A DNA stretch of 64,000 bases from Cyanobacteria bacterium P01_D01_bin.156 (GTDB taxonomy: Bacteria > Cyanobacteriota > Cyanobacteriia > Phormidesmidales > Phormidesmidaceae), in contig JBCCQQ010000010.1 of NCBI GenBank assembly GCA_039024555.1, positions 53,013 through 117,012 on the forward strand. The letters are read 5' to 3'. The number at the start of each line of letters is the position of its first letter. Positions within the stretch are counted from its first letter, which is position 1. The notes under the pieces were generated by a model. That model ran no database searches. It worked only from the letters and a program-made list of their open reading frames with translations, and was not told the DNA's origin. A program made the position numbers and the translations under genes. Positions 15,788 to 29,441 of this stretch are shown piece by piece.

Positions 15788-16950
15788 CAAGACATGCTCA
15801 ATACAGGAGCCAAAGATACGTACTTCATCCAAGCGCGCATGGCATATTGCACGTAGTCTATGCGTACTTCTGTAGCTCGTTGGTTAAAAGCAATTGCAGC
15901 AGCTCGTCTTGAGCGCAATGGCCCTACAGCTCTAGGAATTGCTCCAGCCCACTCTCCATCACGAATTTGAGCCTGTAGCAGAAAGTTGATTCCTCGCCGT
16001 ACGGCACAGTGGATTTGTTTCGTCAGTCTAGTGTTGACTGGCAAAAAAGTTAATGCTGCCAACAACCCTTCTATCCAGGCAGCCGTTGGTAACGTAACTC
16101 CATCTTTTGAAAATCCTCCACTGTAGTGAGGTTGCCTAGGAGTATCAATCTGTTGTCGTAGTAACAGTTCACAAACCCGAGTGGCATAGGCGACTAACAA
16201 CTCTTTAGGCATCGGCATCCCAACTTTAGAGTTGAACGAGAGTAGTTTAGATATCGCTAATAATGTCCACGGATTGATATCCGCCATTGATGCAGGCTTT
16301 CCATGGCGAACAAGACTCTCTAGGGCCACACAGGCTGTTTCTAACCAAATACTGTAACGATCTTTTTCATGGAGCATCAGTAGTCCCAGCGTAGCTTCCA
16401 TGGGATAGTGCTTGAGAGATTGAGGCCTCTTTTTACCTCCAAATAGTGGAATATAGCGAGCATAAAAACTCTTATCTCCCTGCTGCATATAGACAATAAA
16501 GCGCCCCAGAGCTTGTAAATATTCGATGGATACAACCTCTTTTTGTATTGTATGCAAGCTTAAGAAAGCCAACAAACCTGTTCCTGCTCCATCTAGCCCT
16601 GCCTGCAGGGGGCGAGTGGTATTGTGCATTTCAGGTCTTGCCCAAACTGCTAGAGTTGTTTGGGATCCTGGAATCGGTTGAACAGCTTCTTTAGATAGAT
16701 AATTGGCAGACGTTTTGACCGCCCTACGTACATTTTCACTGGGACAATACTGGTTATATAGAGAAAGGGCATACACACAGCCTGCATGGTGCAGTATGTT
16801 ATATTTTGGCCTAAGTTTTACACCAGAATTAGTATTAATACGATATCTAAACATCCCATTTTTCTGCAGGTTGTTTATTAGATAGCCAGCTGCTTGATCT
16901 ATTGCCCCCTGAACGACGTCGATTTGCACAGTCGTTTCTACTTTCAGCAT
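15787..16950 (-). CDS. Hypothetical protein, probable (alpha/alpha)6-barrel (terpene cyclase/glycosidase-like) fold
   Basis: Helical repeats such as AAGYLINNLQKNGMF, GRFIVYMQQGDKSF, GINFLLQAQ; motifs YNILHHAG and VRIDYVQY. Confidence 0.6.
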   Translation of the reverse strand: MLKVETTVQIDVVQGAIDQAAGYLINNLQKNGMFRYRINTNSGVKLRPKYNILHHAGCVYALSLYNQYCPSENVRRAVKTSANYLSKEAVQPIPGSQTTLAVWARPEMHNTTRPLQAGLDGAGTGLLAFLSLHTIQKEVVSIEYLQALGRFIVYMQQGDKSFYARYIPLFGGKKRPQSLKHYPMEATLGLLMLHEKDRYSIWLETACVALESLVRHGKPASMADINPWTLLAISKLLSFNSKVGMPMPKELLVAYATRVCELLLRQQIDTPRQPHYSGGFSKDGVTLPTAAWIEGLLAALTFLPVNTRLTKQIHCAVRRGINFLLQAQIRDGEWAGAIPRAVGPLRSRRAAAIAFNQRATEVRIDYVQYAMRAWMKYVSLAPVLSMS

Positions 16951-17126
16951 GTCAACAGCACCGTTTCATTAATGTAGTACTCTATTTGTTGCCAAAACGA
17001 GTGTTACATTAACGGTTACATTATAGGCTTTTCATAAAGTTTTGATAAAGCTCTTTAAAGAACACCTCTATCAGAAACTAAGGACAGTCCCTACTACAAC
17101 TAAAAAAATTAGACTACTTAGGAAGT

Positions 17127-18386
17127 CTAGTCCATCACTCTGGGGGTATAGTTCACCCAAGGGGCATTAAGCGCTAGGGCCACATTCATGTATTCAAAAG
17201 ATTCCACGAGCCACCCTACTCGATCGAGGGTACATGACTCCTGAATGTGAAACAAAATACCAAAGCGATCTTCAAACCACGAGCGAATCGTACGTCTAAA
17301 TAAGACAAGCTTTAACAAAACAGCGGTTACAACTTTGGCCCCAACGGTTTCAACCAACCGCTTAAAATGCGCCATTTCAGGTCGCTCTATGGTGTTGCTT
17401 ACCAGTAGCTTGAGCAACCGAGTACACATTTGAGTAATGGAAATATCTGTAAGGGGAGTTGTTGTTTGCCCCGCAGAACTCACCAGAACCTCCTTGACCA
17501 GTTTACTAAACCGGTTGTTCTGATAGCGCTCGTCCACATGCACCAGGGGTTCCATAACGTACTTGTAAAACGGCTCCACAAAGTCTCCCGTGGTTCGAAA
17601 CTGAGTTACCCCACCTTCAAAAATCTGGGCTTGGTGCCGATAGCCATTCCGCCGCTGAGGGTGATACAACCCAATCGCTTCTCGCAGTTTTCTATGCTCT
17701 AACCGGGAGGGGTTAACGGCTTGGTCAAGATTGCCTTGACGCTGGGCTTGCCAGTAATGAGTCAGCTGTTGATTCAGCTGCTGAGCCTTTTTCTGACGCT
17801 GCAGCTGAATACTTTCACGCTGGCGCACGGGAATATCGCGGGTCGCTGCTACAGACTCATAGATAAAGAAGTAATCCTTAAAGCAATCACCAAAGGTAAC
17901 GACTTTCTCCTCTACCTCGTCATTTAAAAGACGCATCTGACGCTGTAGCGGGACATACAAATGCTCACTATTTGCATAGTCCGCCATAGCCTTGACCAAC
18001 TGCTTGACCTGACGCCCGGTGGGCTGGCGCTCTGGCAGATGAGTGGCTCGTTCTACTAAAAATCTGAGGTCTGCGTGGCGGTGAGCCTCCATACGCCAGG
18101 GATTACCAATGGTGTAGAAGCATCGGTTAATCACATAGGGCAAAATTTTGTCTGCCTCTGGCGAATCCAGAATATTCATCAGTGCATTACGCACAGATCT
18201 GGGATCAAATTCGGTAAATTCAAACTCTGTACAGCTGACCGTACCCTGGAAGAAAAGACTGTAAAACGCATCAGTAGCAAGTTTTGAATCTTTTAATCGG
18301 GATAGACAGCGAACGTAGCTATACACCTCACGTTCGGCCCGAGTTACTGGGCGATTTGCAAAAAATTCTCCGGCGTTAGAGTACAT
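17127..18386 (-). CDS. Conserved cyanobacterial hypothetical protein (419 aa, helical)
   Basis: INRCFYTIGNPW, LLKLVLF, RFGILF, WLVESFEYMNVALA resemble a widespread uncharacterised cyanobacterial family (recollection, not searched). Confidence 0.7.
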   Translation of the reverse strand: MYSNAGEFFANRPVTRAEREVYSYVRCLSRLKDSKLATDAFYSLFFQGTVSCTEFEFTEFDPRSVRNALMNILDSPEADKILPYVINRCFYTIGNPWRMEAHRHADLRFLVERATHLPERQPTGRQVKQLVKAMADYANSEHLYVPLQRQMRLLNDEVEEKVVTFGDCFKDYFFIYESVAATRDIPVRQRESIQLQRQKKAQQLNQQLTHYWQAQRQGNLDQAVNPSRLEHRKLREAIGLYHPQRRNGYRHQAQIFEGGVTQFRTTGDFVEPFYKYVMEPLVHVDERYQNNRFSKLVKEVLVSSAGQTTTPLTDISITQMCTRLLKLLVSNTIERPEMAHFKRLVETVGAKVVTAVLLKLVLFRRTIRSWFEDRFGILFHIQESCTLDRVGWLVESFEYMNVALALNAPWVNYTPRVMD

Positions 18387-18534
18387 CGAAAGATTGGATC
18401 CCTTTGGAATCTGTTCTTAAAACAGTCTACGTAATTGATAGCGCAAAATATACTTAAGATCCAGTCTGATTCAGTGATTTTCAGGACTGTATCAAAAATT
18501 CATCAAAAAAGTTTGGGATACTGAGCTGCCAAAA

Positions 18535-21276
18535 TTACTTAATAGTGCCTCCTAATCGCTGTATAGAGAGGAGTTCATCGTTTGAAAACCCCTGATTGTG
18601 GTAAAAAATGTAGCCTCTGTATTGATCCAGATCACTGACGGTCTCCCACACCCTCAAACACTGCTGATGTTCAAGGTCCCAAAGGCTCACTGTGTGAGTG
18701 TTTTGGCACAGTAACCACTGGCCATCATTGCTAATGGAGAGAGCATAGGGAAGAGTCGGTAGCACGACACTTTTTTCCGAGACGGGCAACCGGTGGTGCC
18801 ATATATCTACCCTGTGATCTACGTCACACAGTGCTAAATATAAACCGTTTTCACTAAAAGCGGCTTTATGGGGTTGGCAGGCGACCTCTAACTGTTCGAT
18901 ATGAGGGGCCATAGAGTCTTCGGGTGAGGTCTGTTCAATGGGGGTAAATGAGCGTACGACTACCTCAGGATTCGAAGTTTGATAGTCATCATTGACCACC
19001 GCTTCAACCACCTGTAGCTCAACATCGTTCCAGCCAAAGGCAAGAAAATGCCCGTAAGGATTTAGAGGCAGGGTCGCTTTTTGAGCCGTGTAGCTGTCGG
19101 CTCTAAGATTTCGATGCCAGATCCGAATTAGATTATTGTGGTCGTGTCCGGCTAGCACCTTACCATCAGGGCTAAATGCCAGGTGCCTGACAATGTTGGT
19201 GAGTTCGGGTAAGGGCGTACCTGCAGTGTCTTCCCACATGAGGTCCCAGAGATAAACCTGCCCACTGCTCACCCCGGCTGCAATTAAATTGCTGTCTGCT
19301 CTTAGACTAGTGCTACAAATAGCTGCCTCACTGGAGAGGTTATCGTAGGCTTGTTCGTTAACAGTTAAATTATCCCAAATGTGGAGAGTCTGGTCTCCTA
19401 GCGTTACCACTAACCGATTATCCTGAGTGATGGCGATATCGTTGATGGGGACTCCTAAATCTTGACACCATTCTAGGGTGAACCGTTGTTGAGTCTGCTG
19501 ATAAACTTGCAGCCAACCTTGTTCATCGCCAATGGCGACAACGTTCCCTTGGGGATGCAAGGCTGAGACGGTCGTGCCCTGTAATCCTGTCATTAAGGCG
19601 GTGTTGTTGAGCTGACAGTCGCGAAAAGTATATGGCTGTAGCTGGGGACTACTTAAATTTACGTGCCACAGTGTTAATCCTGCCCAGATGTCTTCTGGCA
19701 GCTTGAGGTTGAGGTGGTTGGCTAAGTTCAGCAGGTTGCCAGCGGCACAGCTTTGGGGCTGTTTTGGAAATATGATCAGTTGACGTAACAGGCGATTAAT
19801 TTTCTCCCCTAGGGCATTCGCCAAATGGGTTTGTTGAAGAGCGTTAGCTACAGGCTCTAGAAGATACTGTTTAAGTTCTCGTTGAGAGTCAGTGGGGGCA
19901 TTGGGGATAATAAAGGGATATCTGTGAAACAGCGTTAGCTCTTCGCTGGTCAGCTCTTGTAAAAAGATGGTTTGTAGTTTCTCTAGTAGATATAGACGAA
20001 AATAGCCTGTATTGAGCTGACACAACCCTTCTTTTTCGGAATAAAACTCCAGAAAATGTCGCCGGTGCAGTTTACCCCAAGCTTGCATGAGCTGGGGCTG
20101 GGTAAATGGCAGTATTAGGGGCCATTCTCTTATTTGAGTCCAAGAAAGGGGACGAAAGACTAGCCAATATAATAGCTCCTGTTCAGTCTCTGAGTGAGCT
20201 GCAAATATCTGTTCAAAATAGCTGGTTATGCTAGGCGACAGGGGTAAAAGATTCGTGATAAATTGCTCAATCTGATTGGCGTAGAAAGACTTTAAGGTTT
20301 CCACACTCTTATGTATAAGGCTAGGGTTTCCACCGCATAGTGCATGTAGCTTTTCCCAAGCAGCTGCTTGTTGAGCTAGGGAAGACTCTAAATAGGGATA
20401 AAATTTAATTAACAGTGCCTTTGTGTCAGCAAATGAAAGACCGGTTACGGTTTCAATGGGAATTTGTTGGTCAAGATTGGTGGGTTGAACGGCGGTTATC
20501 CATAGCACACAGCTTTTGGTGCTGACTGTTGTTGTAATCTCTCGAAGAAATGTTTGATAGTCAGGGTCGTCAAGGAAACGCTCGCCCTGTTCAATCAGAA
20601 TCAGGCATGGATGCTGGTTGAGAGTTTGAATCACCTGTTGACGACTTTGCTCTAGATTAGGGCTGGATGTTATGTCATTGTCTGGGGGAGCAAGTTTCTG
20701 ATGCCAGGTGAGCCAACTGGGGGATTCGTAAAATGAATGGCGAATTATCTTGGAAAATAGTTTGTTGAGCTCTGGCTCTAGGGTTTGTAGTAAGTGACTT
20801 TTCCCAATGCCGCTGCCCCCTGTCAGTACAACCAGGGGACTACTGCGATCGCAAAGGGTATCTAGCAGCTGCGATCGCACTCCCGACTCTATTTCCACCG
20901 CTGATCTAACAGGTGTAGCATCCCCCTCAGGTGTGGCTATCAAAGAAAAAGAAGAGGAAGCGATCCCTTGGGAGAGCTGTCTGTAGTCTCTGTAACGGCG
21001 CTCGGCGATTTCTTTAAATTTAGGTTTAGTGACCTTATCTTCTTCTGGCCATACTTTACCTAAAAATCTCCATAGCTTAAATCCAATTTCTCGGTGTAGA
21101 GTCTTTGGCGAATAAACTATGCTAGATTGAGCCATGCGTCTAGCCATTTCGCTGTAGGACAATCCTTCCCAAGTCCAGCGCAGAATGGCCTGCTCGGCAT
21201 CCGTTAACGGACGTTCCCCATAGGATTGCACACAGTCATTGACATAGGCTAAGACATCCTCAAAGTCGAACTCCAT
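18535..21276 (-). CDS. N-terminal HTH - STAND (NB-ARC-like) NTPase - WD40 protein
   Basis: LTDAEQAILRWTWEGLSYSEMA...GFKLW (wHTH-like), Walker A GGSGIGKS, degenerate Walker B LILIEQGE, GGNP motif, AAGNLLNL, pentapeptide-like stretch, degenerate WD40s (VRHLAFSPDGKVLAG...IRIW). ATG at 21276 preferred over the track start 21297. Confidence 0.85.
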   Translation of the reverse strand: MEFDFEDVLAYVNDCVQSYGERPLTDAEQAILRWTWEGLSYSEMARRMAQSSIVYSPKTLHREIGFKLWRFLGKVWPEEDKVTKPKFKEIAERRYRDYRQLSQGIASSSFSLIATPEGDATPVRSAVEIESGVRSQLLDTLCDRSSPLVVLTGGSGIGKSHLLQTLEPELNKLFSKIIRHSFYESPSWLTWHQKLAPPDNDITSSPNLEQSRQQVIQTLNQHPCLILIEQGERFLDDPDYQTFLREITTTVSTKSCVLWITAVQPTNLDQQIPIETVTGLSFADTKALLIKFYPYLESSLAQQAAAWEKLHALCGGNPSLIHKSVETLKSFYANQIEQFITNLLPLSPSITSYFEQIFAAHSETEQELLYWLVFRPLSWTQIREWPLILPFTQPQLMQAWGKLHRRHFLEFYSEKEGLCQLNTGYFRLYLLEKLQTIFLQELTSEELTLFHRYPFIIPNAPTDSQRELKQYLLEPVANALQQTHLANALGEKINRLLRQLIIFPKQPQSCAAGNLLNLANHLNLKLPEDIWAGLTLWHVNLSSPQLQPYTFRDCQLNNTALMTGLQGTTVSALHPQGNVVAIGDEQGWLQVYQQTQQRFTLEWCQDLGVPINDIAITQDNRLVVTLGDQTLHIWDNLTVNEQAYDNLSSEAAICSTSLRADSNLIAAGVSSGQVYLWDLMWEDTAGTPLPELTNIVRHLAFSPDGKVLAGHDHNNLIRIWHRNLRADSYTAQKATLPLNPYGHFLAFGWNDVELQVVEAVVNDDYQTSNPEVVVRSFTPIEQTSPEDSMAPHIEQLEVACQPHKAAFSENGLYLALCDVDHRVDIWHHRLPVSEKSVVLPTLPYALSISNDGQWLLCQNTHTVSLWDLEHQQCLRVWETVSDLDQYRGYIFYHNQGFSNDELLSIQRLGGTIK

Positions 21277-21325
21277 AGATTCACGGTAAACGCACACAAC
21301 CCTTACATATTGAGGAGCTTACCGT

Positions 21326-21523
21326 AAGTCATATGACTTTTTTGTGACTATATGACTTTTTTTATGACTTCTTTAACCTCTCTAGGTCCTGACTTTTTAT
21401 AAAAGTCAGTTGATGGTCAATGACTTTTTATGACTTATGGGTTTGAGAAAATCTCAAATCCATGACTCAGACAGATGACTTTAAGCGGACTAATCAGACT
21501 TTTCCCTTGTCATCATGTAGTCA
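21326..21523. promoter_or_regulatory. Dense TGACT(T) motif array (putative multi-site operator) in a divergent promoter region
   Basis: TGACT at 21334, 21345, 21353, 21365, 21390, 21421, 21431, 21463, 21476; AGTCA at 21327, 21404, 21519. Includes palindromes AAGTCATATGACTT and CTGACTTTT-TAT-AAAAGTCAG. Confidence 0.75.
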
Positions 21524-21578
21524 TCGAGCTTAACGCTTTGATGCATGTAGCACATTTATAAATCAGGGAAATCAACCC

Positions 21579-21752
21579 ATGGCTGAAATGTTTATCGGTT
21601 TAGGTCTAAGCGGTTTGCTAATCGTGATGTTTGGCAAGTCTCCTAGCAAGTCCAAACCAAAGCCTGACAATAAGGCAACACTGACTCTGGTTCTCAACGG
21701 CCAAGACTACACGGTTAAGGAAGTCAAGGGTGCCAGTTTTGAACAGCATTGA
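21579..21752 (+). CDS. Small single-pass membrane protein (57 aa), below the ORF-track threshold
   Basis: MAEMFIGLGLSGLLIVMFGKSPSKSKPKPDNKATLTLVLNGQDYTVKEVKGASFEQH*; AGGGA precedes the ATG; hydrophobic N-terminus followed by a basic linker. Confidence 0.65.
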   Translation: MAEMFIGLGLSGLLIVMFGKSPSKSKPKPDNKATLTLVLNGQDYTVKEVKGASFEQH

Positions 21753-21832
21753 TAACAACGGCTGCTGCAAAACTTCTAGGAAATATCCATAGGAACAGCA
21801 GCTACCCACACCCCATTAGGAGGACACAAACT

Positions 21833-22159
21833 ATGTCTATCCGCTCGTACTTAGCATCTATTTTCTACGTTACGCCTTCCCCGATGCCCCAGGCCCTGAG
21901 CTTTATGGAAGCCCATGGCAGAGTAATCGAACCCATCAAACCTAATGCCACTGGTCGTGTAAATCTGCAAGGTGTTTCTTGGCTGGCGCGCTGTCCCGAC
22001 ACGCTACTCCATCCCTTACCGGTCGATACCCCCATTCAAGTCGTTGATCGAGTGGGCCTAACCTTACTAGTGAGACCCATCGCAACAACAGCAGCCATCT
22101 GCGGAGAACCGCGTCATACCGCTCTTCGCTCGGCAGCTGTGGATAACAGTGCCGCATAG
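21833..22159 (+). CDS. NfeD-like C-terminal OB-fold protein without TM helices (108 aa)
   Basis: AGGAGG RBS before ATG 21833; GRVIEPIKPNATGRVNLQGVSWLAR...VVDRVGLTLLVRP is the NfeD C-domain pattern. Confidence 0.8.
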   Translation: MSIRSYLASIFYVTPSPMPQALSFMEAHGRVIEPIKPNATGRVNLQGVSWLARCPDTLLHPLPVDTPIQVVDRVGLTLLVRPIATTAAICGEPRHTALRSAAVDNSAA

Positions 22160-22201
22160 CAATGCTGGAGTATCAACATAAAAACGGCATGATTTTCCCA
22201 A

Positions 22202-22266
22202 GGAATTTGGAATTCGGAGTTAGGAATCTGGAATGCTCACCCTTTCCGAATTCTGACTTCCGAATT
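22202..22266. repeat. Heptamer repeat inverted pair (GGAATTT/GGAATTC/GGAGTTA...TTCCGAA), hairpin-forming
   Basis: GGAATTT-GGAATTC-GGAGTTA-GGAATCT-GGAA...TTCCGAA-TTCTGAC-TTCCGAA-TTC; same family as 14552-14606. Confidence 0.7.
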
Positions 22267-22356
22267 CATTCCTCGCCGAAGTTTTCTGGATTAAATTGAT
22301 ACTCCGATACCGCCCTAATTCACCTGACAAACCATATCGTTCTCTCGGAGATTCCT

Positions 22357-22587
22357 ATGCGTAGAAGTCATCATTACTCACGGTTTTACTACGTTCTTGG
22401 CAAACTATTGCGTGGCTTTTTTATTCTGGCGTACGGCTTTTTGATTCTTAGCCTTTTGCTCGTCATTGCCATGGGGTTTGAATCCGCTTGGGCATTTTTA
22501 ACCACCCTAGGGCCATGGATATTCAAACTTGGCCTTACCCTTGGCTGTGGTGTTGCTATTCTGGCGCTGATTGAATCCTTACCTTAA
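22357..22587 (+). CDS. Small membrane protein (76 aa, 2 TM)
   Basis: GGAGA RBS; two long hydrophobic stretches after a basic N-terminus. Confidence 0.7.
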   Translation: MRRSHHYSRFYYVLGKLLRGFFILAYGFLILSLLLVIAMGFESAWAFLTTLGPWIFKLGLTLGCGVAILALIESLP

Positions 22588-22779
22588 TGCGCGTCCGCTT
22601 TTGATTACCCATCATGATTAGGGCGGTAGGCAAGGCCCACTTTCATGTCGCACTCGATGTTTATGCAGCATAATTTCGAATAACTTCGCCTTACTTCGCA
22701 GTGGTGGTTCTGGCTGCAGACACCTCATTGAGGTTTCCTAGATACCGTTGCCAATATAGAGGCAGCCGTGTCTTCTTAA

Positions 22780-24012
22780 GTGCATATGGTTTCTAGATTT
22801 TTACGTTACCTGGGGCGTTTTTTGCGCCGTTCTCGCACCATCAATAATGAACCACTCAATAAGGTGAGTCTGGTCGTCATTATTCTGGTGGATATTGTTA
22901 TTTTGTCCAATGTGTTTATTGGCTTAAATGATATCGCCCAGTGGCCGATTTCCCCGGAAGCCGCTTACCCCTGCTACGCCGAGTGGAGTGACTACCGAGA
23001 TAATCAGGCCGATGATAAGGATTTTGATTTGGTGCGTCGAGTCGCCAGTAGACAAGTTATAAACGTAACGTCTGCCTATAACCGAGGGGCTGTGGATCGA
23101 CTCGGTGAGGTGAGCCCTGTTTGTTTAGAGTATGAACAGGTTCGCGATGGGGTTCGCCAGCCAGCCGCTGATGCTCTTTTGAAAACGCTAAACCAGAAAG
23201 AAGGCGAAATCACTGCCCTAGAATTATCGAATAGTACTATTCGCCAACAGTACGACTCTACACTCCTCGAAGAGATTGCTGGGCAGCCCCGCGAGCAGTC
23301 TATTAACCAGACCGGAGCAGCCGAGGCGAAGGCCACTCTGGCTGAAAATGATGCCAAAATTGAGACCCTAGAGGCTGAAATCTCAGAATTAGAAACCAAG
23401 CTGGTTGAAATCCCTGAAAGTGCTGCATTTTTAGAATTTCTTGCTCAGGAGCCTACGTTTCAAACGGTTGAGCAAGCTTATGAGAAAGCCAGATTTTGGT
23501 ACCCTACCATTCAGTTAATCTTTCAGGCATTGTTTTTGGTGCCGTTGATGGTGGTTACCCTAGCGGTGTATAAGCTGGCTCAGCGAAGACGCTATGGTCT
23601 AGTGGCGCTGCTTAGCTGGCATCTGCTGGTGATTTTCTCCATTCCTCTCATTCTTAGAGTGTTTGAGTTTTTCCAGGCGGGTGTTATCTTTGCTGTTGTT
23701 TTTGATGTTGTTAGCGCGTTATTTGGCCAACTGCTGTTTTTGGTCAGCTACATCTATATTTTGTTGATTCCGTTGTTGGGTTTTGGGGTAATTAAGCTGG
23801 CCCAGCGGTTTGTGTTTAACCCTAAGTTACAGGCGGCGGGGCGGGTACAGAAGTCACGCTGCATCAAGTGTGCGAAAAAGATAAAGCTGCACGATACTCA
23901 TTGTCCCCACTGTGGTTACCATCAGTATCGAGAATGTGGCCACTGCCATCAGCAGACGTACAAGTATTTGCCCTACTGTAGCCACTGTGGCACGTCTCAA
24001 CCTGTTGGATAG
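22780..24012 (+). CDS. Multi-pass membrane protein with extracytoplasmic coiled coil and C-terminal double zinc ribbon
   Basis: N-terminal TM helix, coiled-coil loop, 3-4 further TM helices; CIKC...CPHC...CGHC...CSHC. ATG alternative at 22786. Confidence 0.8.
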   Translation: MHMVSRFLRYLGRFLRRSRTINNEPLNKVSLVVIILVDIVILSNVFIGLNDIAQWPISPEAAYPCYAEWSDYRDNQADDKDFDLVRRVASRQVINVTSAYNRGAVDRLGEVSPVCLEYEQVRDGVRQPAADALLKTLNQKEGEITALELSNSTIRQQYDSTLLEEIAGQPREQSINQTGAAEAKATLAENDAKIETLEAEISELETKLVEIPESAAFLEFLAQEPTFQTVEQAYEKARFWYPTIQLIFQALFLVPLMVVTLAVYKLAQRRRYGLVALLSWHLLVIFSIPLILRVFEFFQAGVIFAVVFDVVSALFGQLLFLVSYIYILLIPLLGFGVIKLAQRFVFNPKLQAAGRVQKSRCIKCAKKIKLHDTHCPHCGYHQYRECGHCHQQTYKYLPYCSHCGTSQPVG

Positions 24013-24389: not shown

Positions 24390-27300
24390 TTATTCAGTCA
24401 TTTTGGGTGTTGGTAGATCTCTCGTCCCAGGATGCTTTTCTGTTGTCGCAGGTGTATCGGTAGGGTCATAACCGATGTCGCCTACAAAGCAAAAAGATAG
24501 GGCTAAGTGGAAGGTGTCGCGGTCAATTTCAAACCGCTCTCCTAAGATTCGAGTAATGTCACCTTCAAATCGCCGCCATTCCATGTGGGCGTAGAAATTG
24601 CTCTTAGCGGGTGGGTTGAGGCTTGTGTAGAATTCATTCCACTTTAGAGTCAGAGATGGATTGGGATCTAGGGTACTGACATGCTCATCAAATCGAGCGT
24701 CGAGTTCTTGGAAAACGTCTCGCATGAGGCTGGGATAGCGACCGGATAGGGCTAGGAAAACAAGCACTACTTTTTTGCTTTCTTCTGTGGGTTCGCCCCG
24801 CTTGGACCAAATGACCTTGAGTACTTTGTAAATATTGGTTAGCCGTTTACCGGTGCGGGGGGTAATATCCACGTGGTTGCAGCATTCCACTAGCAGGTCG
24901 AACTCGGCTTGATCAAATTCGGTTACGGCAATGATATTGCCCATGGATTGGCCTGATAGTTCTGATGGCGTTGGCTGCTGGGGCTCTTGTTGTGGTTCTG
25001 GTGGTGGCTCTTGGAACTTCTGTTCTGGTGATTGAGAGCCTATTTTTTGGTCCAGGAGTGGCTCGGGAGCTGATCCTGTTTGTTGTTCTTGATCCGAGTC
25101 TGCTACTTGTTCAAAGTCAGCTTCTAGGCGTTGTTCCAAGAATGGTTGTGGAGTCTGTTGGAGCTCAGACTCTGATGCTGTTATTTGCCTTTCTTCCTGG
25201 TCTAGTGTTTGTTCTTGTTTTTGTCTTGGGGAACGTTTAGGCTTGGCTTTTGGGGCTGATTCCTTAGGTTTACGCTGTTTGGGCGTTGGTGATGCTTTTG
25301 GTGTCTGGCTTTGCTTGGGTTGTGTCTCGTTGTCTGGTGCGATTTCAGTTTGTTCTGGATCCTTAACCTGTACTTGTTCGGCCAGGTAAGATTTTACATT
25401 TTTTTGGGAAATGGGGCGCATGCGGTAGGGGATCTGGATGATTTTTTCCAGATAGTCCACACCGGAGGGTACACCGCCCCGTTTGAGGACGCCCTGATAC
25501 ACTTCTTCGAGGGCACGTGCAATGTAGCGATCGTCAATGGCTAGGACGACGATAAAGAGCTTGGTTTTGAGTAGGAGTTGAACAGCCTCTAGAACCTGCA
25601 CCACCCGGTCGGGGGGGCAGCGGTCTAGGTCGTCGATGTAGACCACAACTCGGGCAGGGCCACGGGGAAAGAGCTTTTTCAGAGCTTCTGCGTTGTGGGG
25701 GCCGGGGGTGAGCTGCTGGGTAAGGTCGTAGAGGTCCTGCTGGATTTGTTTCATTAGGCCCAGATGCTGGCCATAGGCGTTGTCATCCAGGCGGGAATTG
25801 ACAAAGTCTAATAGGGAAGGGGCATCGGCGATGATGCCAATGCGTTGGCGTTGTTCGTTGATTTGGAGTTTTAGTTTGGCGATGTCTTCAGCAATGGCGG
25901 TAGTATCACTCTGCTTTTCCGCCAGTAGGCTTTCCCGTTCGCTTTGGATGCGGGCCTGTTCTTTTTGGACGGCCTGAATGTAGTTCCAGACAATGGGCAG
26001 AATCGAAAGCAGCGCGGCGATCCAAGATTGGAGTGCTGTTGGTAAGCCCGTGGCGTTGAGCCAGGTTTGTATGGTTTGCCAAAGATATTTGGCAAACTGA
26101 AGGATATCGGTGGGGGAGGGTAGGAAGGGAAATTTGTCGGGTTGGCGGAAGTAGACGAACCCAAAAGCCAGAAAGAAAAGAGTAACGAATCCGGTCAGGC
26201 TTTGGAAAGCGGCTGGGATTTTAGCTATCGTTTGTCCTTTGGTAGTGAATTCTTCAATTTGTTCTTCGCTGTAGCGCTGGCGCAGCACTGTATTCAGCAG
26301 GGGTTTCCAGATGGCTGCAAACTTTTCGCGGGAGAGTTTTTGATCTACTTCAAATTCGATTTTGCTGAGGGAGCGTTGCAGTTCCCGTTCTTTTGCCTGG
26401 AGGCTAGCTTCTGCTTTTGTTAGTTGGCGACGTTCTTGTTGGCGGATATCGCTGAGGGTATTCCACAGGTAGTTAGGCTCTTTCAGGTTTTTGAGTTGGG
26501 TTTGATCCAGTTTTTTATTGTGATCTGATTTTTCAAGTTCTTGAGTAAGAAATTTGGTTCGCTTGCTCTCGTCAAGGATATAGATAGATTGCCAGATATT
26601 CCCACCCTCTCTGAGGATTTGGGCATATTGCTCTTGTTCTTGTGGTAACTTTTCAGCTGTTAGCAAGGTTATAAATTCAGAACTGAATTTATCTGATTTT
26701 TCAGATTTGGGATCCCATTGTTGTGCTCGATTTCTTCGTCGTTTCGGGAAACCAACAAAAAAGAAAAATAGACTTAACTCAATAATGTTTTCTATCCAGA
26801 ACTTTTCGTTATCCCATAGCTCGGGTGGGGCGTAGTATTGGCGAAATTGATTATATTCACCAAGTTTACGATTTCCTAGAATGTTGCATACATTGTCGAT
26901 TGCCGAATAAGTTGAATTTATAACCAGGGGAAATCTTGTTTCGAAGCCACTTTCTATCAGTTGGTGAATTGTGCTGACAGCAAGAGAGATAATGCCAACT
27001 AAAATGCTGATAATACCTATGATACTGTGAGTCATAGGTTGATAAATGTTTAGATCTAGATTCTTCAAAAGAGTTGAACTAAAATAGAGCCATGGATATA
27101 CAATTCGCTTTACAGGCTGATATATCCAAGTATCAAATCGTCGATCTGGCTGTTTTAAGTCTTTTTGAGAAGTTTGTTTTTTAAGCCAAAATCGATAGTG
27201 TTTTCTGAAGTTTCTTAACCTCTTCATTGTAGGCCAAGCAATCCTAAGTGAAAACCACTTTTGTCTATTTCGGTTTTGAGTGCGAGTTTTATTGCTGTGG

Positions 27301-29441
27301 TTATTTTTTTTGTCTGAATATTGATTCTGAATGAGAAATTCCCCTAGCTGTTGTTCCCAACTAATCTGGCGGTTGAGTTCGAAGAATATTTTCTGCATAA
27401 GGCTAGCCCATAGGTTTTCCTTGGCATAGCTCCAAGCATCAAATTTAATTTGGTAAATATGCCCTACATAGGGAGAATGTCTACCTGAATAAGGTCCCCA
27501 AACTTGAGGTGGTGTCAATGCTTTAGTGCGAATGGCATTGATTTGGGATTGAATAAGATGCATGGCAAAAGATTTACCACTGCCCCAACTGCCCAAAAGG
27601 GCAACCGCTAGGGGCGGCTTCAAGAGCCGCAGCATCAACACTTGGGTCAGGGCATCTAACTCATCTTGGATAAATAAGGCATCTTCACCTTCTGCAAGAT
27701 CATTATTAAAACTTTGAGGAATGGAAATCCGTTTAGGATTGATAGGCCAAAGACGAATGGTTCTATCAGAACTGCTACTAGCAATAGTGTTGCCATCAGG
27801 GTTAAAGACAACAGACCAGACAGGATTCGAATGTCCTTGGAAAGGTTCACAAATGGAGTTGCCGTTTAAATCCCATATCCGAATAGTGTTGTCAGAGCTA
27901 CCACTGATAATAGTGTTCCCATCGGGGCTAAAGGCAACAGATAAGACAGCTCTCGAATGTCCCTGAAAGGATTCACCGATAGGGTTACCGTTCAAATCCC
28001 ATAGTCGAATGGTGTTGTCATAACTGCCGCTGACAATGGTGTTTCCATCAGGGCTAAAGGCAACAGATAAGACGGTATTCGAATGTCCCTGAAAGGGTTC
28101 ACCGATAAGGTTACCGTTCAAATCCCAGAGCCGAATAGTGTTATCCTGACTCCCACTAATGATGGGATAACTTAACCCTTTCGAGGTCGCTATACGAACG
28201 GGACCAAAGGCAACAGATAAGACAGCTCTCGAATGTCCCTGAAAGGGTTCACCGATAGGGTTACCGTTCAAATCCCAGAGCCGAATAGTGTTGTCATAAC
28301 CGCCGCTGACAATGGTGTTTCCATCGGGGCTAAAGGCCACAGACATGACAGCATCCGAATGTCCGTGGAACGGCTCACTGGTAAGGTTACCGTTCAAATC
28401 CCAGAGCCGAATAGTGTTGTCCTGACCGGCGCTGACAATGGTATTTCCATCGGGGCTGAAGGCCACGGACATGACAGCATCCGAATGCCCCTGGAACGGT
28501 TCTCGAATAGGATTTCCCTGCAAGTCCCACAGTCGAATAGTATGGTCAGCACTGGCACTAACAATTGTCTTTCCATCGGGGCTAAAGGCTGCGGACCAGG
28601 CAGTATTCGAATGTCCCTGGAGGGTCTTGCCGATGCGGTTTCCCTGCAAATCCCACAGTTGAATAGTTTTGTCCAAACTACCACTGGCTAATGTGTTGCC
28701 ATCAGGGCTAAAAGCTACAGACCTAACATAATCCGAATGTCCTTCAAAAGGTTTTTCTATGAGATTGCCATGTAAGTCCCATAGTCGGATAGTTTTGTCA
28801 TCACTGCCACTAACAATAATTTTTTCATTTATAAAAGCTACAGTCCAGACGTCATCTAAATGTCCCTTGAAGGGGGTGTTGATTAAATTGCCGTGTAAGT
28901 TCCACAGCCGAATAGTTCTGTCAGCGCTACTACTGGCTAATGTGTTGCCATCAGGGCTAAAGGCAACAGATAAAACGGTGTCCAAGTGCCCCTGAAATGG
29001 TTCACCAATAGGGTTACCATTCAAATCCCATAGTCGAATGGTGTTGTCATTGCTGCCACTAGCAATAGTTTTTCCATTAGGCCCAAAAGCTACAGACCAG
29101 ACAGGAGCTGAATGACCCTGGAACGGTTCTCCAATAGGATTTCCCTGCAAGTCCCACAGTCGAATAGTATGGTCAGCACTACCGCTAACAATTGTCTTGC
29201 CATCGGGACTGAAAGTCACTGAAAAGACAGACCTTGAATGTCCCTGAAACGGATTACCGATGGGATTACCCTGCAAATCCCACAGTCGAATGGTTTTGTC
29301 ATCACTGCTACTGACAATGGATTGACCATCGGGGCTAAAAGCTACAGACCCAATAGTATCCGAATGTCCTTGGAAGGGAGCCCTGATGACTACAGGACCA
29401 TTTTTTTGCTTTCCCGGCTGCGCTGGTTGTGCTACATCCAT
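24390..29441 (-). CDS. WD40-repeat (13 repeats) - KAP-family P-loop NTPase fusion, 1683 aa
   Basis: 13 GH...WD repeats; KAP Walker A ALLGSWGSGKS, FDAWSY, inserted TM helices and coiled coil, Walker B VVVYIDDLDRC, DYLEKIIQIPY, ITPRTGKRLTN. Confidence 0.92.
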   Translation of the reverse strand: MDVAQPAQPGKQKNGPVVIRAPFQGHSDTIGSVAFSPDGQSIVSSSDDKTIRLWDLQGNPIGNPFQGHSRSVFSVTFSPDGKTIVSGSADHTIRLWDLQGNPIGEPFQGHSAPVWSVAFGPNGKTIASGSNDNTIRLWDLNGNPIGEPFQGHLDTVLSVAFSPDGNTLASSSADRTIRLWNLHGNLINTPFKGHLDDVWTVAFINEKIIVSGSDDKTIRLWDLHGNLIEKPFEGHSDYVRSVAFSPDGNTLASGSLDKTIQLWDLQGNRIGKTLQGHSNTAWSAAFSPDGKTIVSASADHTIRLWDLQGNPIREPFQGHSDAVMSVAFSPDGNTIVSAGQDNTIRLWDLNGNLTSEPFHGHSDAVMSVAFSPDGNTIVSGGYDNTIRLWDLNGNPIGEPFQGHSRAVLSVAFGPVRIATSKGLSYPIISGSQDNTIRLWDLNGNLIGEPFQGHSNTVLSVAFSPDGNTIVSGSYDNTIRLWDLNGNPIGESFQGHSRAVLSVAFSPDGNTIISGSSDNTIRIWDLNGNSICEPFQGHSNPVWSVVFNPDGNTIASSSSDRTIRLWPINPKRISIPQSFNNDLAEGEDALFIQDELDALTQVLMLRLLKPPLAVALLGSWGSGKSFAMHLIQSQINAIRTKALTPPQVWGPYSGRHSPYVGHIYQIKFDAWSYAKENLWASLMQKIFFELNRQISWEQQLGEFLIQNQYSDKKNNHSNKTRTQNRNRQKWFSLRIAWPTMKRLRNFRKHYRFWLKKQTSQKDLKQPDRRFDTWIYQPVKRIVYPWLYFSSTLLKNLDLNIYQPMTHSIIGIISILVGIISLAVSTIHQLIESGFETRFPLVINSTYSAIDNVCNILGNRKLGEYNQFRQYYAPPELWDNEKFWIENIIELSLFFFFVGFPKRRRNRAQQWDPKSEKSDKFSSEFITLLTAEKLPQEQEQYAQILREGGNIWQSIYILDESKRTKFLTQELEKSDHNKKLDQTQLKNLKEPNYLWNTLSDIRQQERRQLTKAEASLQAKERELQRSLSKIEFEVDQKLSREKFAAIWKPLLNTVLRQRYSEEQIEEFTTKGQTIAKIPAAFQSLTGFVTLFFLAFGFVYFRQPDKFPFLPSPTDILQFAKYLWQTIQTWLNATGLPTALQSWIAALLSILPIVWNYIQAVQKEQARIQSERESLLAEKQSDTTAIAEDIAKLKLQINEQRQRIGIIADAPSLLDFVNSRLDDNAYGQHLGLMKQIQQDLYDLTQQLTPGPHNAEALKKLFPRGPARVVVYIDDLDRCPPDRVVQVLEAVQLLLKTKLFIVVLAIDDRYIARALEEVYQGVLKRGGVPSGVDYLEKIIQIPYRMRPISQKNVKSYLAEQVQVKDPEQTEIAPDNETQPKQSQTPKASPTPKQRKPKESAPKAKPKRSPRQKQEQTLDQEERQITASESELQQTPQPFLEQRLEADFEQVADSDQEQQTGSAPEPLLDQKIGSQSPEQKFQEPPPEPQQEPQQPTPSELSGQSMGNIIAVTEFDQAEFDLLVECCNHVDITPRTGKRLTNIYKVLKVIWSKRGEPTEESKKVVLVFLALSGRYPSLMRDVFQELDARFDEHVSTLDPNPSLTLKWNEFYTSLNPPAKSNFYAHMEWRRFEGDITRILGERFEIDRDTFHLALSFCFVGDIGYDPTDTPATTEKHPGTRDLPTPKMTE

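Follow-up and report, generated by a model that had tools for sequence, protein, structure and literature searches.

A compact group of genes for a candidate regulator and several small proteins was analysed in Cyanobacteria bacterium P01_D01_bin.156 (assembly GCA_039024555.1), within a stretch of 64,000 nucleotides of contig JBCCQQ010000010.1 (positions 53,013 to 117,012, forward strand) that is referred to here as the window; the genome to which it belongs (G000) measures 6.6 Mb. The group comprises a gene for a 913-aa protein of the STAND class (signal transduction ATPases having numerous domains), with a helix-turn-helix (HTH) head, a nucleoside triphosphatase (NTPase) domain and a WD40 tail, the gene for a 419-aa protein, and, head-to-head with the STAND gene, genes for a 57-aa peptide, an NfeD-type oligonucleotide/oligosaccharide-binding (OB) domain and a 76-aa peptide, the divergent genes being separated by DNA rich in the pentamer TGACT (Table 1). 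This head-to-head arrangement had been proposed in an initial annotation made from the letters alone, and all five gene coordinates were confirmed, as were the transmembrane (TM) traits assigned to the small proteins, a Kyte-Doolittle scan giving one hydrophobic segment for the 57-aa peptide, two for the 76-aa peptide and none for the NfeD-type protein. The ATG at 21833 is the likely start of the NfeD gene because its relatives start there. The 419-, 57- and 76-aa proteins had no match in Pfam, NCBIfam contributed nothing beyond Pfam for the module proteins, and Rfam gave 0 matches in 16800-22900. The module is real and conserved: the order of small genes, array, HTH-STAND-WD40 gene and 419-aa gene, the first being divergent from the others, recurs in three cyanobacterial families.

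Table 1. Features of the module, in positions of the window.
Feature	Position	Strand	Remarks
419-aa protein gene	17127-18386	-	Follows the STAND gene on the same strand
STAND gene, 913 aa counted from ATG	18535-21276	-	In-frame alternative GTG at 21297
Degenerate WD40 region	18637-19554	-	Residues ~575-880, about one propeller
Walker A motif, G153-S160	20797-20820	-	Intact
N-terminal five-helix domain	20968-21276	-	Predicted LuxR/NarL-type HTH
Predicted recognition helix			Starts Y55-S-P-K-T-L-H-R62, within the STAND head
Gap between STAND gene and 57-aa gene	21298-21578		281 nt
-10-like hexamer TAAGCT facing the STAND gene	21316-21321	-	Putative promoter; the first + strand box is 12 nt away
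Array of 12 TGACT boxes	21327-21523	9 on +, 3 on -	Likely operator; T runs after most boxes
TGn-CAnnAT extended -10-like element facing the small genes	21508-21516	+	Putative promoter; 30 nt past the box at 21476
57-aa peptide gene	21579-21752	+	N-terminal hydrophobic segment
NfeD-type OB domain gene, 108 aa	21833-22159	+	TM-less; Pfam PF01957, E 7e-11
Dispersed repeat, ~150 nt	22161-22310		15-nt inverted ends, internal heptamer-like repeats; between NfeD and 76-aa genes
76-aa peptide gene	22357-22587	+	Two TM segments predicted

The first 105 residues of the STAND protein were modelled as five helices without a wing (AlphaFold; predicted local distance difference test score, pLDDT, 93), and the top eight VIA matches of this model among 48,161 chains were all of LuxR/NarL type (Z 6.2-6.8; root-mean-square deviation 1.9-2.6; 63-68 residues aligned), the head sequence giving weak matches to the same class. 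Together, the HTH named in the initial annotation is predicted to be of the LuxR/NarL type; a winged helix was rejected because the model has no wing strands, and Sigma70_r4_2 was not among the 25 Pfam families listed for the head. The head, for which we take the Pfam name to be HTH_VMAP-M9, was found in 135 of 201 cyanobacterial genomes, with up to 24 copies per genome. At three loci (L130, L142 and L214) both genes of an adjoining pair carry it, and a member of the HTH-WD40 family lies in a model strain, on the Synechocystis plasmid pSYSG (L248, 32698-36411), a search under its presumed locus tag giving no paper. When searched against PDB, the HTH profile also matched three lysozyme-fragment repeats of 5i8l (summed E 2e-9, each weak), which is probably a helix-bundle look-alike. 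Beyond the head, Pfam detected WD40 and, below cut-off, NACHT/AAA (NACHT/AAA_16); the assignment to the STAND class rests on Walker A, which is intact across the clade described below, a Glu-bearing Walker B strand, a GGNP motif and a full-length alignment with 1200-aa paralogs, a tree of the NTPase domains serving as a rough guide only, given that it mixed NB-ARC and AAA_35 domains. The WD40 tail is present as annotated, but it is short and degenerate, a single stretch passing Pfam against 14 in a 1184-aa relative (L299).

The gap had been described as packed with one repeated motif, and its 12 TGACT boxes indeed form the densest such cluster of the genome, where the mean is 0.52 per 250 nt, the next cluster has 7 and no second comparable array occurs. 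In an alignment of the gap with 10 same-genus relatives, box columns were identical at 0.71 as compared with 0.50 elsewhere, a value reached by 48 of 10,000 circular shifts, which is about what the unshifted placement alone yields; six of the 12 boxes reach at least 0.84 and one 0.72. Across a clade of 18 related loci, termed here the TGACT clade, all of which retain the array, 54 of 98 adjacent spacings measured 10-11, 20-21, 31-32 or 41-42 nt, corresponding to whole helical turns. The number of boxes on the main strand ranged from 2 to 9. A genome-wide TGACT regulon was rejected, as only one of seven other close TGACT pairs in the genome (C12) looks operator-like. Located near 103969 of C12 on the - strand, that site is a possible second target; the end of a WD40 gene and a 1037-aa gene enclose three CTGAC/CCGAC-TTTT boxes in tandem there.

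The relationship between head and box was investigated over 150 distinct HTH loci for which 300 nt or more of upstream sequence was available, drawn from the 150 best of 599 head matches and from earlier loci, and a comparison of these sequences indicated that the core of the box follows the predicted recognition helix; kinship and physical linkage inflate all counts of this comparison and of the tandem test below. Helices of the T(L/V/M)(R/K/H) or NLKN type are accompanied by at least four TGACT in 17 of 18 loci versus 0 of 132 others, EGH.(K/R)D helices by at least two CCGAC in 11/12 versus 4/138, E.(H/Y).KE helices by CC(A/T)AC in 3/3 versus 8/147, and YL.(R/Q/K)D.GP helices by at least two CCTGA-TT/GAACTT in 9/27 versus 6/123, with T runs following all box cores. 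The CCGAC group includes proteins of ~800 aa, a WD40 protein of 1191 aa, another protein of 477 aa and a frame of 93 aa that is HTH only, and since its loci span such different lengths and tails, the box appears to track the head and not the tail. A motif-blind test for tandem pairs of a core plus TTT was positive at 41 of 150 loci when applied to the strand that runs away from the STAND gene, compared with 3/150 on the other strand, 3/148 further upstream and 20/3000 random windows, and without the TGACT clade the two strands still gave 23/132 and 3/132. Arrays at all paralogs of the family were considered and rejected, the five other paralogs of the window's genome having no dense array, although the one at C9 shows a few CCGAC/CAGAC-like boxes.

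The boxes also stand in a fixed register with promoter-like hexamers, which supports the reading of the array as an operator. Towards the STAND gene, the first box and a TAnnCT hexamer (AGnnTA on the opposite strand) are exactly 12 nt apart in 17 of the 18 clade loci, no other offset accounting for more than 5; in the YL group this hexamer and the box are 3 nt apart in seven of the 27 loci, exactly the seven that carry an NfeD or 419-aa gene. Towards the small genes, a (C/T)AnnAT hexamer follows a box at 31 nt in 10 of 18 loci and at 30 nt in three, including the window, and the weak -35 region of this putative divergent promoter adjoins the last box. Boxes would therewith lie over the regulator's own putative promoter, at its spacer and -35 region, one box being placed near -45 of the divergent promoter, and self-repression combined with activation would fit because of these positions. 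At five CCGAC loci (L141, L145, L151, L179 and L204) the last box abuts TGACA, with TAAGCT or TAAGTT some 17-18 nt further on, an arrangement that reads as a clear activator-type layout.

The neighbourhood is shared by homologues, in which NfeD-like genes and a TGACT array co-occur beside the STAND gene, a co-occurrence that the initial annotation had suggested checking. STAND orthologs with 41-51% identity were present in 11 of the 21 other genomes that represent the genus, not all of them complete, the named records including Leptolyngbya sp. PCC 7375, where the module is present in full (L036), and Adonisia turfae, and six loci from two other families, obtained via the 419-aa gene, have the same gene order and a TGACT array. 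The conserved 419-aa gene claimed to follow the STAND gene on its strand was found in all 16 clade loci with downstream DNA, and an upstream NfeD gene in 14 of 18, the exceptions being three losses and one short contig. The 57-aa peptide occurs in 11/11 loci of the genus and 0/7 other clade loci; the 76-aa peptide occurs in 10/11 genus loci and is absent within 1.5 kb upstream in the six loci of the other two families. Seven additional loci with other STAND bodies (453, 788 and ~1200 aa) carry NfeD or the 419-aa gene, and one locus of another family (L291) has the 419-aa gene, an HTH-NTPase gene, NfeD and the 76-aa gene together. Outside this block, gene content varies between relatives.

The 419-aa, NfeD and 76-aa proteins are recurrent companions of STAND proteins in the sequences compared. 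The TM-less NfeD subfamily is expanded, with up to seven NfeD matches per genome, and was followed in 41 loci outside the training set, made up of the next 21 matches with 1.5-kb flanks and 20 hand-chosen loci that include L299, already known to adjoin a STAND gene. In 18 of these, 15 NfeD genes face an HTH-headed STAND-like gene (two showing the head only within view and three more being without a Pfam NTPase at E 1e-5), two, from two genomes, are fused as NfeD-HTH-NTPase-TPR and one follows a NACHT gene, and in a further locus NfeD is fused to CHAT-TRADD-N. Because the heads at these loci are of several types, NfeD seems to accompany STAND proteins in general. No hydrophobic segment precedes the OB domain in the window NfeD or in any of 37 short NfeD-like open reading frames scored, and evidence for an amphipathic N-terminal helix on these proteins is weak (27/37 above the shuffle mean). 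A Band-7 query, which as a single query can miss distant SPFH families, matched at 1 of 350 loci, adjoining the only TM-bearing NfeD of the 41, and nowhere in the module. The window's genome has a second TM-less NfeD, head-to-head with an 814-aa HTH-NTPase gene (G000:C27:21456-24482), and tandem near-identical TM-less NfeD genes occur at L267 and L293.

The 76-aa family was found in 56 of 201 cyanobacterial genomes, is unnamed and matched only unnamed clusters in the Atlas; at 19 loci outside the training set its gene faces an HTH or STAND gene in six and follows NfeD in five. NfeD and 76-aa genes also stand alone or beside other regulators. At two sets of loci (L296, L343, L344; L259, L266, L271, L283, L347) they face regulators that are presumably PadR-like or lie near a small gene with a KRKRLNLDL-like motif. 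Small proteins with Cys pairs (zinc-ribbon-like) and a TM segment adjoin the NfeD or 76-aa gene at L262, L270, L276, L277, L324 and L334, and often occupy the place of the 57-aa peptide.

The 419-aa family is present in 180 of 301 genomes of the class, in 388 clusters at 50% identity, and carries the precomputed Pfam labels PF27138 and PF27130. A confident all-helical model (pLDDT 89) gave no Foldseek match at E <= 0.001 and no usable Atlas match, its best VIA matches being unrelated helical bundles that cover residues 11-161 only (Z 7.0), and the protein had no match when compared with plasmids. In 10 of 14 unfused loci the common 419-aa paralog faces one and the same gene, which we take from its sequence to be murF. 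The domain is fused behind an AAA_35 NTPase at six genome loci in two families, and of 19 long relatives picked by length, the partners were AAA_35 in five, SAV_2336-type in three, pentapeptide repeats in two, CHAT in two (one with TRADD-N) and TIR in one, six having no named fusion partner. In a quick tree, STAND-following copies stand apart from the murF-type copies, among which the AAA_35 fusions nest, and this placement suggests that the domain was recruited more than once. GUN4 occupies similar slots and has been proposed as a sensor there (PMC7159879); by analogy, the 419-aa protein could be a sensor or a decoy.

Other sequence around the module bears less directly on it. The repeat between the NfeD and 76-aa genes has 22 more blastn matches in the genome and is probably an insertion outside the module. 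The 76-aa gene is flanked by a perfect 12-nt inverted repeat (22308-22319 and 22617-22628) that may be due to chance. Beyond it, 22780-24012 (+) encodes a 410-aa protein that combines TM segments and a coiled region with a double zinc ribbon at the C-terminus and does not adjoin the module in the relatives checked, and 24390-29441 (-) encodes a 1683-aa protein whose 13 N-terminal WD40 stretches precede a TM-bearing P-loop NTPase, presumably KAP-like.

Together, the 913-aa protein is likely to be a STAND regulator that acts on the array and the flanking genes, confidence being lower for the polarity, partners and physiological role of the module. It would be a one-component regulator whose LuxR-type head sits on phased TGACT-TTT boxes beside its own gene; bound there, it would probably damp its own promoter, and once a signal is sensed the divergent small genes would be switched on. 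Binding of the boxes by the head, suggested by the helix-box correspondence, is likely. Nucleotide-dependent multimerisation resembling that of MalT in Escherichia coli, with several heads aligned along the same face of the DNA, falls a little short of an even chance, the estimate having been lowered because the NTPase is partly degenerate. That boxes at about -25 to -48 repress the regulator's own promoter and that a box at about -45 activates the divergent one is judged from their placement to be evenly balanced. Tentatively, the 419-aa protein may serve the STAND protein as an accessory sensor or partner, and it is rather unlikely, if conceivable, that NfeD and the two peptides act at the membrane as the output of a module that watches for stress or infection, in which NfeD may feed back on the STAND protein. 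The MalT-like one-component model of the initial annotation is partly supported: computation speaks for the conserved neighbourhood and array, a predicted LuxR-type fold and the promoter register, but not for a stomatin-linked membrane-stress output. As proposed there, the WD40 part may sense the signal and the NTPase, which is partly degenerate, may oligomerise.

Several observations weigh against this reading. The Z-scores of the head fold are moderate, all below 8, and the head model had no Foldseek match at E <= 0.001. The first acidic place of Walker B is a Glu in three of 11 aligned clade proteins, the 913-aa protein included, and an Arg after the next strand (the residue that we would label 'sensor I'), carried by five 1200-aa paralogs, is absent in seven of the 11, again including the 913-aa protein; because of this Glu, the lost Arg and the shortened WD40 region, the nucleotide switch may be altered. 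A plain sigma-70 scan listed no promoter in 21298-21578, five of the 12 boxes are poorly conserved (0.22-0.64), and the box at 21476 reaches 0.22 in one alignment, though GACTTT aligns there in another. The TGACT clade draws 11 of its 18 loci from one genus, and seven were obtained through the 419-aa gene; three genus loci retain the array but lack NfeD upstream, and a 419-aa gene of the same clade has no STAND gene upstream at L082. The helix groups were drawn after the upstream listing had been viewed, only nine of the 27 YL-type loci have their own motif twice, and co-variation can arise through joint inheritance, head and upstream DNA being physically linked. Finally, 109 of the 150 HTH loci fail the tandem test, so that most paralogs appear to be without an array.

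The same degenerate NTPase motifs and shortened WD40 region could also belong to a repressor with a weakened NTPase, which would cover the whole array, block both promoters and be released by a signal. The first boxes do overlap the spacer of the protein's own putative promoter, and a GACTTTT at 21497-21503 lies within the spacer of the putative divergent one. However, Walker A is intact throughout the clade, the last box stands 30-31 nt before the divergent hexamer and beside a -35 region that is weak, and both precedents that have been tested, XssQ and MalT, are activators. A mainly repressing STAND protein is judged unlikely.

A defence or cell-death module resembling NOD-like receptors (NLRs), in which an invader is recognised by the STAND and 419-aa proteins, the two-TM peptide damages the membrane and the only task of DNA binding is to silence toxic genes, is improbable to a slightly greater degree. 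It draws on the fusions of the 419-aa domain to TIR, CHAT/TRADD-N, AAA_35 and SAV_2336-type domains and of NfeD to CHAT-TRADD-N, contexts of a kind reported from conflict systems (PMC7159879, PMC8195603), and on the patchy distribution of the STAND ortholog within the genus, where some genomes are incomplete. On the other hand, PADLOC 2023 models run against seven proteins gave only a weak match in the WD40 region, and the 76-aa peptide is also found alone or beside other regulators and is missing upstream at the loci of the other two families. We know of no toxicity of the 76-aa peptide.

It is very unlikely that the array is the target of another regulator, or slippage-derived sequence inherited with the gene. 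Linkage alone can give co-variation, box number varies on the main strand and most paralogs lack arrays; nevertheless, conservation is higher in the boxes than in the spacers, spacing by helical turns and a constant distance to the hexamer hold across three families, and the genome has no second array of this kind. The output model of the initial annotation, a stomatin/flotillin-type membrane-stress operon, is highly improbable: NfeD-SPFH operons are usual (PMC2636767), in S. aureus flotillin is a binding partner of the NfeD OB fold (PMC11222466), and SPFH genes elsewhere in the window's genome could be served in trans, but the sole Band-7 match adjoins a TM-bearing NfeD whereas 18 of 41 NfeD loci are tied to STAND-like genes, TM-less NfeD domains travel and fuse with STAND proteins, and the genome retains an ordinary NfeD-SPFH pair at C66.

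Returning to the STAND regulator on its array, a wider picture, possible though doubtful, is that filamentous cyanobacteria hold a set of LuxR-headed NLR-like switches with a helix-specific 5-nt core and a shared T tract, that a kit of NfeD, two-TM and 419-aa proteins is fitted to varied STAND bodies, and that the 419-aa protein derives from the murF-linked copy as a decoy or sensor. If so, the module would guard that cell function and answer with small membrane proteins. A box that changes with the predicted recognition helix would make target sites predictable for a large and unstudied group of regulators, whose head-bearing proteins are usually catalogued among the immune-like NB-ARC or WD40 proteins, and the predicted operator, helix-to-box code and fixed promoter layout make the family testable. 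The analysis also places two cyanobacterial protein families without names (419-aa and 76-aa) in a functional context for the first time, and it suggests that NfeD OB domains have a role beyond stomatin systems.

Among known systems, the NfeD-SPFH operons share with the module the Pfam NfeD OB domain, whereas the module NfeD lacks a TM anchor and an SPFH neighbour and is associated with a STAND protein. Conflict systems of multicellular bacteria that depend on nucleoside triphosphates, with their TIR, CHAT/TRADD-N and SAV_2336-type contexts, are similar in that the 419-aa and NfeD domains occupy C-terminal slots, like GUN4 and FGS there (PMC7159879, PMC8195603); they differ in that no MoxR or vWA genes were noticed in the module. 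NfeD is not named in the main texts of these two papers, whose source-data files may name the domains. Cyanobacterial architectures of sigma70_r4_2, NB-ARC and TPR, WD40 or AAA_35, termed 'SigR', have been listed as sigma factors (PMC11119718) and likewise join an HTH-like N-terminal domain to NB-ARC, WD40 or AAA_35, but the 913-aa head does not reach Sigma70_r4_2, and the relevant passages of that paper give no operators, partners or function. PMC9239133, PMC12267927 and bioRxiv 10.64898/2025.12.18.694786 served as context only. The module had been put forward as undescribed, and no description of it, its boxes, the helix-box relation or the NfeD-STAND link was found in a literature search that excluded supplements and most subscription papers and, for one query, covered 20 of 434 hits; within that scope the claim can be kept for the operator, the helix-box relation and the NfeD-STAND link, but a box-binding STAND activator with an N-terminal HTH is known in XssQ (PMC8205485).

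XssQ (Slr5058) of Synechocystis sp. PCC 6803 is the nearest tested precedent, the only tested HTH-STAND regulator from cyanobacteria that the literature search brought up, and belongs to another family. It activates its targets through an N-terminal HTH, binds single or tandem AAGTTxxAC, shifts consensus DNA in electrophoretic mobility shift assays, and drives polysaccharide genes under the XssS/XssR two-component pair (PMC8205485). Both are cyanobacterial N-terminal-HTH STAND proteins with short single or tandem boxes and a divergent neighbour gene, xssP in the case of XssQ. In contrast, XssQ is a NACHT protein whose head has no match to the present HTH profile and which has no significant BLAST match to the 913-aa protein (best E 0.067); AAGTTxxAC boxes number 0 in 21298-21578, no XssS/XssR or polysaccharide genes lie beside the module, and no gene of the NfeD, 76-aa or 419-aa type is annotated beside xssQ.

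The DNA-binding domain of MalT is of LuxR type and lies at the C-terminus. The likeness consists in this fold, predicted for the 913-aa head; the module also has phased and conserved boxes, to which binding may be cooperative. The 913-aa protein differs from MalT and the LAL proteins in its N-terminal HTH, a reduced WD40 region in place of TPR/SUPR, and a partly degenerate NTPase. MalT of E. coli has a SUPR/TPR sensor and a known inducer, which drives multimerisation and cooperative binding of several boxes, while MalY and other partner proteins hold it back (PMC4381067, PMC10427625). By analogy, the module would work like XssQ and MalT, but it is a member of neither family.

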